Below, one piece after another: positions 11,048 through 27,208 of a stretch of DNA of 64,000 nucleotides. How positions within the stretch are numbered: position 1 is the first letter of the stretch; each line of letters starts with the position of its first letter. Origin of the DNA: a virus (Duplodnaviria > Caudoviricetes); IMG/VR virus record IMGVR_UViG_3300038393_000457, positions 19,809 through 83,808 of that record; one strand, written 5' to 3'. The notes beneath the pieces were generated by a model. That model did not search any database. It saw nothing but the letters and a program-made list of their open reading frames with translations, and was not told the origin of the DNA. The translations under genes and the position numbers were made by a program.

Positions 11048-11267
11048 GGTGGATGGCACCGGCGCGCGGCGGGGACTAAGGTATGAATTGGTAACATCTT
11101 ACATGGAATAAATTTGCTTCTATGGTGTAACGGCAGCACGGTGTCCTTATAAGACATAAGCGGTAGATGACCGCGCGGAACAGGTTCGAATCCTGTTAGA
11201 AGTACCAATCCTGGAGATCGGCTAGATTAGCTGGAACGGCACGGTTCGAAACCGTGATCCACTACCA
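11048..11267 (+). ncRNA. Interrupted type II tRNA-like element whose anticodon loop contains a complete tRNA-Ile
   Basis: GGTGGAT (11048) pairs with ATCCACT-ACCA (11257-11267); T arm CACGG-TTCGAAA-CCGTG; V arm CGGCTA-GAT-TAGCTG; GGGA-CT ... AA-TCCT anticodon-stem halves flank a 130-nt insert. Confidence 0.55.
11116..11207 (+). tRNA. tRNA-Ile(UAU) with long variable arm
   Basis: GCTTCTA/TAGAAGT-ACCA; GTGTC-CTTATAA-GACAT; V arm GCGGT-AGATG-ACCGC. Confidence 0.8.
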
Positions 11268-15587: not shown

Positions 15588-15645
15588 ATTACTACCCCTA
15601 CCAAGGGATCGAATAAAAGATCATAACTTTGGTAGTTTCATTTAT

Positions 15646-15695
15646 GCTCGCTCGCCGTAAGGTGTGCAACTGATCGAAAGATCAAGCGAGCACCA
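15646..15695 (+). ncRNA. 50-nt CCA-terminated mini tRNA-like RNA
   Basis: GCTCGCT/AGCGAGC-ACCA acceptor stem closing two GNRA hairpins (CGCC-GTAA-GGTG, TGATC-GAAA-GATCA). Confidence 0.65.
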
Positions 15696-15731
15696 ATTAT
15701 AATGTCCCTATAGTGAAACTGAATAGTCAAT

Positions 15732-15809
15732 GGTGCTGTATCCCTCGACGCTACGAACGTCGTGAAAGGTAATTGGATCATGCAGGTTCGACCCCTGTCA
15801 GCATCTCCA
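15732..15809 (+). tRNA. tRNA-Arg(ACG)-like RNA lacking a D arm at the normal position
   Basis: GGTGCTG/CAGCATC-TCCA; CGACG-CTACGAA-CGTCG starts 7 nt after the acceptor; T arm GCAGG-TTCGACC-CCTGT. Confidence 0.7.
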
Positions 15810-16386
15810 TTATTCTATTAGGTTCTCCATATAGAAGCTTAATAGATTTTTTTACTTGATCTAATTTCTCCTGTTGTTTGATGACAACGATTGGATTCTT
15901 TGGATCAAGAAATATGTTAAGATTAGGAAGATAGAAATCTGGAAAGTATTTGTGTTCTTTCCCATTTTTATCGATCCAAGGAATTGATGTTTTTGGTTGT
16001 TCCCAAATAATATTGGCTTCATCAAGTAATTGGGCCATTTTTACTTCCCAACCAGAATCAAAGATAAAGTTTTTGTAAATTTGACGTTTTATACCGGAAG
16101 CATTCTTTCTTTTGACCGCGATGAAACATTGGTCAGAACAAGTTGTTCCAATTTTCTTTTGTGACGCAAAATATTTTTGGCATACAGAACATTGTCGAAA
16201 ATATACCTTGGAATTGGGTCCACAAACATGTCTCTTGCTGAAGAAGCCTCTTTTACCAATTGTTGTTGATTTTATCCTTGTATAATTACGACCGCGTTTA
16301 AGGTTATTGTATGTTGCGGAACAAGATGAACCACAGAATTTTCTTTTTAATGGTATAAGTAAGTTGCAATTTAAACAATTATGCAT
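15778..16386 (-). CDS. Free-standing homing endonuclease-like protein (Zn-finger repeats + PD-(D/E)XK/TnsA-like domain)
   Basis: CLNC..KFCGSSC and CSVC..CSDQC; FDSGWEVKMAQLLD...YFPDFYLP...LDPK; AT-rich; 3' end overlaps the tRNA-like T arm. Confidence 0.75.
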   Translation of the reverse strand: MHNCLNCNLLIPLKRKFCGSSCSATYNNLKRGRNYTRIKSTTIGKRGFFSKRHVCGPNSKVYFRQCSVCQKYFASQKKIGTTCSDQCFIAVKRKNASGIKRQIYKNFIFDSGWEVKMAQLLDEANIIWEQPKTSIPWIDKNGKEHKYFPDFYLPNLNIFLDPKNPIVVIKQQEKLDQVKKSIKLLYGEPNRIMEMLTGVEPA

Positions 16387-16481
16387 TATAAATCTCCTTC
16401 TAAATGCTAATTGTATTTAGTAAAATTTCGACTCAAGATGTGGGTTCGAGTCCTGCTAGGGACGCCATTTAAGAGGTTGTT

Positions 16482-16712
16482 ATGACAGATTGGGGAACAG
16501 GTTGCACAGAGACGAGTGATGATTGTACTCTTCACAACCTTCATTGTGGTTATCCAAATTATCCTAAAGGTAAAAGGGATAAAGCAAAGATCAAAACTCC
16601 AACGGAGTTGATCGTGGAAAGAATGAGAAGTCTTGGTCTAGCTATCAATGACGCTCAGAGAATCGCCAATGAAGTTGTTCATGTACTTGGACAAAATGGT
16701 TATTTGAAATAG
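16482..16712 (+). CDS. Hypothetical protein
   Basis: GAGG RBS, 76 aa. Confidence 0.55.
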   Translation: MTDWGTGCTETSDDCTLHNLHCGYPNYPKGKRDKAKIKTPTELIVERMRSLGLAINDAQRIANEVVHVLGQNGYLK

Positions 16713-16718
16713 AAATTT

Positions 16719-16798
16719 GGGGGACGGGACTGCTTGGGGTGGTCGTCGCACTTGCAATGCGAATATTCAGCAGGGTTCAAATCCCTGGTTCTCCACCA
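16719..16798 (+). tRNA. tRNA-Ala(UGC)
   Basis: TCGCA-CTTGCAA-TGCGA; G3:U70 pair; ACCA end. Confidence 0.9.
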
Positions 16799-16800
16799 AA

Positions 16801-16919
16801 ATTAACATACACCAGCGCCGCGTGGTTATACTAATCACCTAAGACGTGAAAGCATTCGAAAGAATGGGCCTGTTGGAGCAAAATACGGTGCGGATAAACT
16901 TGCTTTCATGTATGTTAAT
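16801..16919 (+). ncRNA. Structured ncRNA candidate (about 120 nt)
   Basis: Terminal 10-bp stem ATTAACATAC/GTATGTTAAT; internal GTGAAAGCA/TGCTTTCAT. Confidence 0.5.
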
Positions 16920-16931
16920 ATTCTAGAAATA

Positions 16932-17174
16932 GTCAGCTAACAACTTCCCCGTAGAAGGGGTGGCCAGTCACAAATCGACGGCCTGACAAATGGTTAGCAC
17001 AATTCAGAGCTTAGACCGGGATCGATTCACTCAGAAGCTATCAGTGACCGGCTATGTGGTTGTTGTCTCGCAATGCTTCTGGCACGCAACCAGAAATTAT
17101 GCAGGTACCATTCGCGTGAAGATTTGGCTAAGCTAATGTGATAATCTGAGGCCTGCACCACATTAGATGTTGAC
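16932..17174 (+). ncRNA. Structured ncRNA candidate (about 240 nt) with probable pseudoknot
   Basis: Closing GTCAGC/GTTGAC; TGCAGG/CCTGCA crossed by CTAATGTG (17133-17140)/CACATTAG (17159-17166). Confidence 0.5.
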
Positions 17175-17204
17175 AGTAAGTAGAGTTTTTGTTAGTATGT
17201 GTTT

Positions 17205-17636
17205 GTTCGTTCTTAGAGAAATGCCGTGACAGAGTGATCACGTTTTACTTTTCGGACGGAATGTGCCCTGGTAAACAACTACGGGGCGGGAGTAGGAGTG
17301 AGAAGGATAAAGTCCTTGAAGACTGGAAAGTATGTTGTAGCGTCCAGTTGGAGAGAGCAACACGACAGAACATAGTCTAGAAAAGCGTGTTGTATCCGTT
17401 AATAACGGATGAGTCGTTGATAATGTACTAAGCGGCCACTTGGTAAGTTTGAGACTCTGACTGATTAATCCCCTCATGTTTGAAACTCGGAGGCCTTGAC
17501 AGCCACCCGGCATTTCTCTAAGATCGAATGATTGTAGACGCTAAGGTTTAATTTGACCTCAGAAGTGAAAACCAATAAAGATTGTTGGTGATAGTATCTT
17601 CGATTACGAGACGATTTGAAAGGGTCGGTTCTACAT
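17205..17636 (+). ncRNA. Large structured ncRNA candidate (about 430 nt)
   Basis: Perfect 16-bp long-range stem 17211-17226/17508-17523 plus many internal helices; no credible ORF. Confidence 0.6.
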
Positions 17637-17646
17637 TTGTTTTTAT

Positions 17647-17721
17647 ACGGGAGTAGCTCAGTGAAAGAGCGTCTGGCATCAGGTCAGAAGGTCGGTGGTT
17701 CAAGTCCATCCTTCCGTGCCA
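17647..17721 (+). tRNA. Degenerate tRNA with UCA at the anticodon position (probable pseudo-tRNA, Pro-like body)
   Basis: ACGGGAG/CTTCCGT-GCCA; TCTGG-CATCAGG-TCAGA; A33, and D loop lacks GG. Confidence 0.55.
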
Positions 17722-17726
17722 ATTAT

Positions 17727-17781
17727 GGAGGGCTTCCTAAGGGTATGGGAGCTAAGTGCGCTAGAGGTGCAACCTCCACCA
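17727..17781 (+). ncRNA. 55-nt CCA-terminated mini tRNA-like RNA
   Basis: GGAGG/CCTCC-ACCA closing two short hairpins. Confidence 0.55.
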
Positions 17782-17848
17782 GTTTTTGATATAGACAACG
17801 ACGATGATGATCTTACCTGTATTTGGAGAAATTTAATTTCTTCTTAGT

Positions 17849-17921: not shown

Positions 17922-18634
17922 CTAAGAAGAAATTTTTTCTTTACAGTATTATAATTAGCACCTCTTGGACTTTTTCCTTGTGCAATAAGATATTGACGAA
18001 TAGAAGGATATCCTTCTATTTCAATTTTCTTGGTGTTCTTTCTACGTCTTATATTTCTACCTCTCCATGTATCTGTTTGTGAATGACAATTTGGGCATAG
18101 AAATTCCACATTTTCTCTTGTGTTATTATGATGATTACCATCCTTATGTTCAAATTCCAATGTAATTGGTTTACCTAACCAAGTGTCATTATGACATTTA
18201 TTGCACCTATTTTCTTGATCTCTTAATACCTGTTCTTTAAGTTCTTTGACATATGATAATGGATTTCTTTCTCGTCTTTTTGCATGTTCTATTTTCCATT
18301 TAAGACCATCCATTAATCTTTTATGTTCCATTGAACAAAATTTCTTTTGTTTTCTGCTAAGTATATTATAACAACCATCAATTCCACAATAACAATTTTT
18401 ATTATCTAAATCCTTTAGACGTTGGAAATTGTTGACTCTGGTGGAACAACTATTGCAGCAATATTTTGGATTTCTTGTGTTTTTGTTGCATTCTTGGTTC
18501 ATACATTGATGTGGTTGTCTCATTATTTGACTTTCATTTTTTGTTATGTTAGTATTTACCATACTAAATAATTGATCAAAAGTCAATTGGATATTATAAA
18601 TAGGATTTCCGGCACGATGTAATGGTGCCGCCAA
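17903..18634 (-). CDS. HNH homing endonuclease with N-terminal Cys-rich repeats
   Basis: CNKC...LEFEHKDGNHHNNTRENVEFLCPNCHSQT; AT-rich; true start may be downstream of the listed one. Confidence 0.85.
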   Translation of the reverse strand: MAAPLHRAGNPIYNIQLTFDQLFSMVNTNITKNESQIMRQPHQCMNQECNKNTRNPKYCCNSCSTRVNNFQRLKDLDNKNCYCGIDGCYNILSRKQKKFCSMEHKRLMDGLKWKIEHAKRRERNPLSYVKELKEQVLRDQENRCNKCHNDTWLGKPITLEFEHKDGNHHNNTRENVEFLCPNCHSQTDTWRGRNIRRRKNTKKIEIEGYPSIRQYLIAQGKSPRGANYNTVKKKFLLSTPGGI

Positions 18635-19045
18635 GAACGTCGGTCAGATATGGCCGATTGGATCGCTCAGGTGGTCCTAGGTTCTTGGACAAGTTTTGCG
18701 GTAGCTTACGGATGTTTGTCTAGGTCGAAAGACTAAATTTCGGAGTGTGAAGGAAGCACGGTGGTCTTTTAGACGACCAGAATCGGATCGTTACCGGTCG
18801 AAATTTTCCGCAACTAAATAGACAACCGTAGTGTGAAGAACACGTAAATCGGATGAATTTTTGGCATTGAGTGTTTGGGAAAGTATGATATCTGACTGCA
18901 CTGGTTGATGCATTCCAGACGGTCTAACTCAACTATCACCGTTGGTTATCATGGTACATGGTGGAAATGGTATACACGCACGTTTTGAAGACGGGCGCTC
19001 GAAAGAGATTGCAGGTTCGAATCCTGTTGTACACTGTGACGATCC
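18610..19045 (+). ncRNA. Large structured ncRNA candidate with an embedded tRNA-like domain
   Basis: Stems 18631-18638/18681-18688; 10-bp long-range stem 18785-18794/19036-19045 encloses the tRNA-Leu-like module. Confidence 0.5.
18952..19035 (+). pseudogene. tRNA-Leu-like module (UGA at anticodon position), incomplete acceptor, no CCA
   Basis: TGGTGGAAATGGTATACAC D arm typical of Leu; CTC-GAAA-GAG V arm; GCAGG-TTCGAAT-CCTGT; only 5 acceptor pairs. Confidence 0.55.
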
Positions 19046-20553: not shown

Positions 20554-20626
20554 GCCTAGTGGTCTCGGGTACCAATCTGGTCTCATAAGCTGGATGTGAT
20601 TGGTTCAAATCCAATACGAGGCACCA
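20554..20626 (+). tRNA. tRNA with CAU anticodon (Met or Ile2), reduced D arm
   Basis: GCCTAGT/ACGAGGC-ACCA; loop CTCATAA; ATTGG-TTCAAAT-CCAAT. Confidence 0.7.
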
Positions 20627-20723
20627 AAATTGCGGAAAGACTACCATGGATGTCGTCACAGGGACCGTGACCTTGCGCGTTGAGGATAGACTGTTGACCC
20701 GCAATAGTATTTGTGTATAATTT

Positions 20724-20805
20724 GCCAAGTTCGCATAGCGGCGATTGCAGCACTTTTGTAAAGTGCCATTCCACATCGGGGGTTCGAGTCCCTCACTTGG
20801 CTCCA
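20724..20805 (+). tRNA. tRNA-Thr(UGU), enlarged variable region
   Basis: GCCAAGT/ACTTGGC-TCCA; GCACT-TTTGTAA-AGTGC; 11-nt variable region. Confidence 0.88.
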
Positions 20806-22489: not shown

Positions 22490-22574
22490 GCGGGTGTCGG
22501 ATAGCGGCTATTCCGCTTCCTTGCCAAGGAAGAGCCGAAAGGCATCATGGGTTCGAGTCCCATTACCCGCTCCA
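22490..22574 (+). tRNA. tRNA-Gly(GCC) with long variable arm
   Basis: GCGGGTG/TACCCGC-TCCA; CTTCC-TTGCCAA-GGAAG; V arm GCC-GAAA-GGC. Confidence 0.88.
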
Positions 22575-22824: not shown

Positions 22825-22908
22825 ATCGGTGCTAGGGTAGTGGGATACCTAACTGTCTCCAAAACAGTCGCCTAGAGCTAGGGGGTTCGATTCCTCACAC
22901 CGGTGCCA
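22825..22908 (+). tRNA. tRNA-Trp(CCA), enlarged variable region
   Basis: ATCGGTG/CACCGGT-GCCA; ACTGT-CTCCAAA-ACAGT; 12-nt variable region. Confidence 0.82.
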
Positions 22909-27125: not shown

Positions 27126-27208
27126 GCACACGTCCCATAGCGGCCATTGGAGCAGACCCTTAATCTGTCGCGAAAGCATCGTCGGTTCGAGTCCGACCGT
27201 GTGTACCA
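27126..27208 (+). tRNA. tRNA-Lys(CUU) with long variable arm and C33
   Basis: GCACACG/CGTGTGT-ACCA; GCAGA-CCCTTAA-TCTGT; V arm GC-GAAA-GC. Confidence 0.82.

Follow-up and report, generated by a model that had tools for sequence, protein, structure and literature searches.

The tRNA array and its two putative short RNA genes

The window, that is, the whole 64,000-nucleotide (nt) stretch of DNA that was analyzed, comprises bases 19809-83808 of the 83.8-kb IMG/VR record IMGVR_UViG_3300038393_000457, which belongs to an uncultured phage (Duplodnaviria; Caudoviricetes) and has a CheckV completeness of 47%. The record carries 31 tRNA genes (ARAGORN and Rfam), 27 of which lie inside the window, all on the + strand and interleaved with homing endonucleases (HNH-type and others) and small open reading frames (ORFs). 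This layout is much like that of the annotated tRNA region of phage T5. Two of the slots between the tRNAs hold elements of 50 and 55 nt, here called MINI1 and MINI2, which are predicted to fold into three-way junctions with an encoded CCA at the 3' end and which are the subject of this work. The gene content of the fragment includes ribonucleotide reductase, a NadR-like nicotinamide mononucleotide adenylyltransferase/NUDIX protein, NAMPT, sugar-modifying enzymes and thymidylate synthase. By blastn, no DNA-level similarity to GenBank phages was found except in one endonuclease segment. The positions of the minis, of their parts and of the tRNA next to MINI2 are as follows.

15646-15695, + strand: MINI1, 50-nt three-way-junction RNA (predicted fold)
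15646-15652 and 15685-15691, + strand: acceptor-like stem of MINI1
15653-15664, + strand: hairpin A of MINI1 (GUAA loop)
15665-15670, + strand: linker of MINI1
15671-15684, + strand: hairpin B of MINI1 (GAAA loop)
15692 and 15693-15695, + strand: discriminator A and CCA of MINI1
17647-17721, + strand: tRNA(UCA), with an anticodon of the opal-suppressor type (ARAGORN and Rfam, 50.9 bits), 5 nt upstream of MINI2
17727-17781, + strand: MINI2, 55-nt three-way-junction RNA (predicted fold)
17727-17731 and 17773-17777, + strand: stem of MINI2
17732-17752, + strand: hairpin A of MINI2
17753-17756, + strand: linker of MINI2
17757-17771 and 17772, + strand: hairpin B of MINI2 and unpaired A
17778 and 17779-17781, + strand: discriminator A and CCA of MINI2

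The minimum-energy fold of MINI1 has a perfect 7-bp stem (GCUCGCU/AGCGAGC) without mismatch. Hairpin A (4 bp, GUAA loop) abuts the 5' strand of the stem and is followed by the 6-nt linker; hairpin B (5 bp, GAAA loop) abuts the 3' strand, and ACCA follows the stem. Stem and hairpin B together give 7 + 5 = 12 bp with no unpaired base in the 3' strand. The fold energy is -20.9 kcal/mol (z score = -4.06), a value that none of 200 shuffled sequences equaled. In MINI2 the stem has 5 bp (GGAGG/CCUCC), hairpin A 6 bp and a loop of 9 nt, the linker 4 nt and hairpin B 6 bp and an AGA loop, with the lone unpaired A after it and ACCA at the end; its limb of 5 + 6 bp with one bulged A falls short of the 7 + 5 bp of a minihelix. 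The reverse strands fold weakly, at -15.0 kcal/mol (z = -1.1) for MINI1 and -13.8 (z = +0.2) for MINI2. Because MINI1 contains one G.U pair and MINI2 three, the predicted structures belong to the + strand.

The preliminary description of this DNA had proposed, from the letters alone, two RNAs in which an acceptor-like stem with discriminator A and encoded CCA closes two hairpins, which have neither anticodon nor T loop, and which are preceded by tRNA-style leaders. Fold prediction bore out the anatomy. ARAGORN, which searches for tRNAs and transfer-messenger RNAs (tmRNAs), called neither mini, and no match to either was found among 4227 Rfam families at E <= 10, including tRNA (RF00005), mascRNA, tmRNA and Y-RNA. 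The leader TTAT stands before G+1 in both minis and in 5 of the 27 window tRNAs, compared with a genome frequency of 0.0066 per position. A further junction RNA that had been listed as similar, at 20631-20703 on the + strand, did not hold up and was excluded from the set: it has no CCA, its z score is -0.14, 83 of 200 shuffles fold as well, and no relative of it was found. The idea of a minimal tRNA mimic thus stands for the anatomy of the two minis (in MINI1 a 7/5 limb of 12 bp, a purine discriminator and CCA; in MINI2 5 + 6 bp with an unpaired A) and falls for the third member.

With neither the anticodon arm and T loop nor the score of at least 29 bits against RF00005 expected of a canonical tRNA, both lie outside that class. 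They also differ from a minihelix, a single hairpin with a T loop, in having an extra hairpin and linker and in their loops, which are GAAA in MINI1 and AGA in MINI2 and not UUCRANY. Neither has the G+C-rich hairpin with a U-run within 0-2 nt of an intrinsic terminator, and MINI1 has no T-run. As in T4 and T5, both are non-tRNA genes that lie within a phage tRNA cluster and share the orientation of its tRNAs. MINI1 ends 8 nt before tRNA-Arg(ACG) and MINI2 begins 5 nt after tRNA(UCA), resembling tRNA-tRNA spacings of 6 and 8 nt elsewhere in the array. The 3' trailer of MINI1, CCA followed by ATTA, is the same as that after tRNA-Glu, tRNA(UCA) and tRNA-Thr(UGU). The promoter scan gave hits at chance level and the terminator scan called neither mini. 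One promoter match inside MINI1 (TCGAAA-N18-TATAAT) was taken as chance; its start would fall within the next tRNA.

In tRNA numbering, the top of the stem reads G1-C72, C2-G71, U3-A70 and A73 in MINI1 and G1-C72, G2-C71, A3-U70 and A73 in MINI2. None of the charging identity elements looked for, which are those established for minihelices of the Ala, His or Gly type (G3:U70; G-1/C73; U73 with G1:C72, C2:G71 and G3:C70), is present in either stem. The acceptor stems of the phage's tRNAs do not match the mini stems beyond 3 bp. Nothing in these comparisons supports aminoacylation of the minis.

Single parts of this anatomy are common. A 7-bp stem with NCCA alone occurs 121 times on the two strands (67 + 54), compared with about 21 times in mononucleotide shuffles, and a simple hairpin with NCCA is likewise uninformative. 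These frequencies, together with the z score of -1.8 of MINI2, are what would speak for two chance hairpins ending in CCA. The full architecture was described as a 5- to 7-bp stem that encloses two hairpins, each at offset 0-1 and with 2-8 nt of linker between them, and that is followed by N-CCA. On both strands of the 83.8 kb, this descriptor matched exactly MINI1 and MINI2, compared with 0.033 matches per locally shuffled genome; the descriptor was designed post hoc from the two minis, which makes the rarity figures partly circular and overstates their significance. Both matches lie in inter-tRNA slots on the tRNA strand, and this position is independent of the descriptor. Given that placement, the strand asymmetry of folding and the conservation described below, a chance origin is scarcely credible. 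No paralogue of either mini was found in the 83.8-kb genome. The descriptor had no match in the tRNA regions of T4 and T5, nor in about 100 kb of further loci, and its seven matches in 415 kb of G+C-richer phage loci include none that is free-standing in a tRNA slot. Among 44 unrelated phage loci gathered through a shared T-arm 22-mer, no comparable free-standing junction mini was found.

Conservation in related phages

No copy of the minis came up when IMG/VR, JGI metagenome contigs and GTDB genomes were searched with direct DNA patterns. Searching 50,697 GenBank phage records by blastn gave chance matches only (E about 6), and a similarity search against the index of other scanned DNA windows returned nothing alike. 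Relatives were reached through a 76-amino-acid (aa) ORF that lies between the minis (16482-16712). L006 and L007, which are one phage from two samples, have 83% amino-acid identity over half of this ORF, and L008 has 99% identity to it. L010 and L011, reached through an 87-aa ORF, are the window's own phage in other samples; their MINI1 is identical and they add no information. Other anchors were rejected. NAMPT led to L001 (61% identity), whose 88-kb record has no tRNAs, a 270-aa ORF led to L002-L005, which are without arrays, and distant homologues of the 76-aa ORF (HMMER) lie in contexts without tRNAs.

MINI2 is present in L006 (1869-1923), where 53 of its 55 bases are identical and ACCA is kept. 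One change is in a loop base of hairpin A and the other turns the pair U9.G23 into U9-A23; the loops and the linker are as conserved as the stems. The block consisting of tRNA(UCA), the 5-nt spacer, MINI2 and the following T-run is 95.8% identical over 144 nt. Its boundaries are the first base of tRNA(UCA) and the CCA plus 5-6 T, and both flanks are unalignable. The run is placed as follows.

17782-17787, + strand: GTTTTT run (TTTTTT in L006), directly after the CCA of MINI2; last conserved bases of the block (alignment)

Other alignable blocks between the window and L006 are 72-92% identical, with tRNA-Ala at 89%. By a binomial estimate, two or fewer changes in 55 nt have a probability of about 5e-4 at 20% divergence and about 0.05 at the rate of tRNA-Ala. 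Because so few changes are improbable and the flanks are unalignable, the alignment suggests that MINI2 is at least as constrained as the array tRNAs, unless the module has recently been exchanged. The 5-6 T that follow the CCA in both phages and mark the end of the conserved block might be taken to mean that MINI2 ends the tRNA(UCA) unit, as a terminator of transcription or some other cis signal, and has nothing to do with MINI1. This is very unlikely, as the T-run begins 4-5 nt past the 5-bp helix closing the three-way junction, the scan made no terminator call there, and MINI1 is not followed by such a run.

The tRNA(UCA) orthologue in L006 (1788-1863) has the anticodon UUA, which reads UAA, as well as an extra T before the 3' acceptor strand, and it scores 31 bits as a tRNA. 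Judged by these anticodons, the stop-codon-reading tRNA has switched its stop codon (UGA versus UAA) between the relatives. Recoding of TGA as the purpose of tRNA(UCA) was considered and is not established; read-through of TGA opens many overlapping frames, and no Pfam domain spans a TGA.

MINI1 is found in L008 (499-548) with three changes, G19A in hairpin A and C22T and A23G in the linker, none of which touches the stem, hairpin B, either tetraloop or ACCA. The preliminary description had let its case depend on conservation of the CCA ends in homologues, and the encoded ACCA is indeed retained in MINI1 of L008 and in MINI2 of L006, which is a very small sample. In L006, MINI1 is lacking, with a clean indel of about 57 nt between a conserved upstream hairpin and tRNA-Arg.

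This presence or absence as a clean module, in an array rich in homing endonucleases and with indel and cassette polymorphism between relatives, would fit a functionless origin of the minis, either as decayed tRNA genes whose acceptor stem was left after internal deletions or as neutral passengers of cassette shuffling and homing-endonuclease traffic. MINI1 also aligns weakly with the 3' two-thirds of tRNA-Ile(GAU), with a score of 29 against 27 for the 95th percentile of shuffles; descent from this tRNA was rejected as marginal. We regard decay or passage as quite improbable. MINI2 is kept at tRNA-like levels next to DNA that has diverged past alignment, and MINI1, with its flawless 7-bp stem, two GNRA-capped hairpins and z score of -4.06, does not look like a product of decay. 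Moreover, neither mini scores as a tRNA at E <= 10, and the genome holds no paralogue.

Other features of the array

Two further features flank MINI1.

15598-15635, run to 15645, + strand: conserved hairpin plus U-rich run, UUUCAUUUAU, between tRNA-Glu and MINI1 (z = -3.08; in all three lineages)
15704-15721, + strand: 5' fragment of tRNA-Arg(ACG), 8 nt downstream of MINI1; its 3' part lies at about 16431-16467 (BLAST blocks 15695-15721 and 16431-16574)

The hairpin at 15598-15645 looks like a terminator and was not called by the terminator scan. Right after tRNA-Glu, L006 (566-648) and L008 (about 360-445) carry an element of about 87 nt that is missing from the window, where it would lie between 15587 and 15588. 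Its 3' hairpin retains the loop AUGACACACC, with both partners exchanged in two stem pairs (C-G to U-A and U-A to G-C). An ACCA end is present in L006 but not in L008.

An insert of about 700 nt (15722-16430) interrupts tRNA-Arg(ACG) in the window; the gene is whole in L006 (705-780) and L008 (557-632). The insert carries a rearranged replacement tRNA-Arg(ACG) (15732-15809) and, on the minus strand, a 202-aa endonuclease-like ORF (15778-16386) with weak matches to Phage_endo_I and TnsA_N. The replacement tRNA lacks a D arm and consists, in order, of acceptor stem, a 7-nt linker UAUCCCN, anticodon arm, a long region with GGUA..UGGA, and T arm. The same plan is found in the unrelated IMG/VR phage L049 (4040-4121) with the anticodon UCG, where the anticodon stem is identical and the acceptor stem wholly different (CCCCACG versus GGUGCUG). 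Because an unrelated phage has the same plan with a different acceptor stem, the sequences indicate that this is a conserved noncanonical type of tRNA.

Several tRNAs that are normally short are 80-92 nt long in this array, namely, those for Gly (22490-22574), Lys (27126-27208), Trp (22825-22908), Thr (20724-20805), Ile (11116-11207) and Ala (16719-16798). They have extra hairpins in the variable region, several of them GAAA-capped, such as GCCGAAAGGC in tRNA-Gly(GCC) and GCGAAAGC in tRNA-Lys(CUU). A possible tRNA-like gene at 20555-20626, just upstream of the excluded candidate at 20631-20703, has the T arm GATTGGTTCAAATCCAAT, the 3' end ACGAGGC-A-CCA and a CUCAUAA loop (anticodon CAU); it was called by neither ARAGORN nor Rfam. 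Two ORF-free blocks, at 16924-17155 (95% identical to L008 and 75% to L006) and at 18607-18816 (88-92% identical to L006), are probably larger noncoding RNAs of the array. The stretch from tRNA-Ala to tRNA(UCA) is ORF-free in the window (17205-17636) and contains two small ORFs in L006.

Processing, possible roles and significance

The interpretation we prefer, although we hold it to be about evenly poised between right and wrong, is that the minis are anticodon-less copies of the tRNA acceptor limb, small + strand RNA genes that occupy tRNA slots and are excised by tRNA-processing enzymes. They would be cotranscribed with the neighboring tRNAs and freed by the enzymes that act on these: RNase P, aided by the RCCA end, would cleave between U-1 and G+1, and the 3' side would be trimmed back to the encoded CCA. 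The outcome would be stable RNAs of 50 and 55 nt that display a tRNA 3' end and have no decoding capacity. Among the enzymes that act on acceptor/T minihelices with NCCA are bacterial RNase P, the CCA-adding enzyme and some synthetases; EF-Tu also reads the limb. We infer cotranscription and tRNA-like excision because the limb with its NCCA end is what RNase P and other tRNA proteins recognize. The features of both minis, U-1, G+1, RCCA and a predicted stacked limb, are compatible with RNase P cleavage.

The closest described things are the stable RNAs of the T5 and T4 tRNA clusters (T5 RNA I, III, IV and RNA1-RNA3; T4 species 1/2, which are rnaC and rnaD). Like the minis, these are non-tRNA genes among co-oriented tRNAs and homing endonucleases; the T5 record lists eight "stable RNAs with unknown functions" in the tRNA region, three of which are named tRNA-like (RNA1, RNA2 and RNA3). 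Some have acceptor-like ends. T5 RNA I (L057, 6395-6501, minus strand, 107 nt) has a closing helix GGCUC/GAGCC followed by G-CCA, and T4 species 2 is annotated up to ...GCACC, after which the genome continues with A and then AATTA, placing a CCA across the annotated end. T4 species 1 and T5 RNA1 and RNA2 have a T arm and an acceptor-like helix, whereas a T loop is absent from the minis. These phage RNAs are also longer (73-172 nt, and 719 nt for RNAX), show no sequence similarity to the minis and contain no match to the junction descriptor, and they have been detected as RNA, the minis being predicted from sequence.

Synthetic acceptor/T minihelices share with MINI1 the 12-bp limb (7 + 5), N73-CCA and the lack of an anticodon. 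The minis differ from them in being natural genes and three-way junctions, with an extra hairpin and a 4- to 6-nt linker in the place of the D and anticodon arms and with GNRA or 3-nt loops instead of the T loop; the limb of MINI2 departs further, with 5 + 6 bp and a bulged A. The tRNA-like domain of tmRNA and the small RNAs mascRNA and bacterial YrlA, which RNase P processes, are, like the minis, partial tRNA mimics; tRNA enzymes act on them and may handle the minis as well. These RNAs keep the T loop, which the minis lack, and none of the corresponding Rfam models matches a mini at E <= 10.

Several points weigh against the proposed excision of the minis as functional tRNA-like RNAs. RNase P needs a T loop for full affinity, and the minis have none. 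No CCA-adding enzyme, RtcB, RNA ligase, RNase P RNA or tRNA-repair enzyme was found on the 83.8-kb fragment, which is 47% complete, and nothing on it ties the minis to such a pathway. The fold energy of MINI2 (-22.0 kcal/mol; 12 of 200 shuffles as good) is unexceptional. No double compensatory change was seen for either mini in the two sequences compared per RNA, and the change G19A in L008 breaks C8-G19, the outermost pair of hairpin A in MINI1. The conservation of MINI1 in L008 says little because the surrounding DNA is about 96% identical too. Because it is cleanly absent from L006, MINI1 is a dispensable, cassette-like module and not an essential one. The identity of the tRNA(UCA)-MINI2 block could result from recent module exchange rather than from selection.

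The same features could also be explained if the minis acted purely in cis, as cheap RNase P sites that free the ends of their neighbors, with the excised minis as by-products. A cut 5 nt past the CCA of tRNA(UCA), for example, would let the 3' end of that tRNA be trimmed; we think this cis-only proposal unlikely, though not far-fetched. The U-1/G+1 and RCCA of both minis would serve a processing mark equally, the tRNA(UCA)-MINI2 pair is conserved as a unit, and the next tRNA after MINI2 is distant and variable (67 nt from the end of MINI2 in the window and about 170 nt in L006). A single hairpin would suffice for such a mark, however, whereas the minis add a second hairpin and a linker, and the loops and linker of MINI2 are conserved like its stems. 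MINI1 would moreover be superfluous for tRNA-Arg, whose gene brings an RNase P site of its own, and L006 does without MINI1.

More speculatively, we place a role in trans slightly above a purely cis-acting one; as decoys or competitors, the minis would then divert a factor that recognizes acceptor stem plus CCA. In its favor are the unrelated sequences of the two minis combined with a common predicted junction plan, whose complexity exceeds what a cutting mark would require, and the conserved loops and linker of MINI2. MINI2 and the stop-codon-reading tRNA that precedes it by 5 nt might also form a working pair. The CCA-targeting toxSAS toxin FaRel2 efficiently modifies a synthetic minihelix (PMC11245113). 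Acceptor stem and CCA are thus sufficient for effectors of this kind, which makes a decoy role plausible. In a more specific form, which we consider doubtful, the minis would be trans-acting counter-defense RNAs, abundant nondecoding tRNA tops that soak up a host immune effector recognizing the acceptor stem together with the CCA end, with MINI2 specifically coupled to the stop-codon-reading tRNA. Candidate effectors would be toxSAS enzymes (CapRel/FaRel type), MenT-type nucleotidyltransferases and GNAT acetyltransferases. If this were true, the decoys would shield the real tRNA pool.

The presence in phage tRNA clusters of unexplained stable non-tRNA RNAs, such as species 1/2 of T4 and RNA I, III and IV of T5, has been known for fifty years. 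No paper on CCA-ended minihelix genes in phage arrays was found in a literature search. The genes of 50-55 nt described here represent the smallest form of that puzzle, consisting of an acceptor helix, a short stacked arm and CCA, and they point to the 3' acceptor end as the working part. If made and stable, they would be natural minihelices and candidate substrates or decoys of RNase P, the CCA-adding enzyme, synthetases and defense toxins that act on the acceptor end. The conserved pairing of MINI2 with a tRNA that switches between UCA and UUA may offer a handle on the expression of suppressor-type tRNAs.

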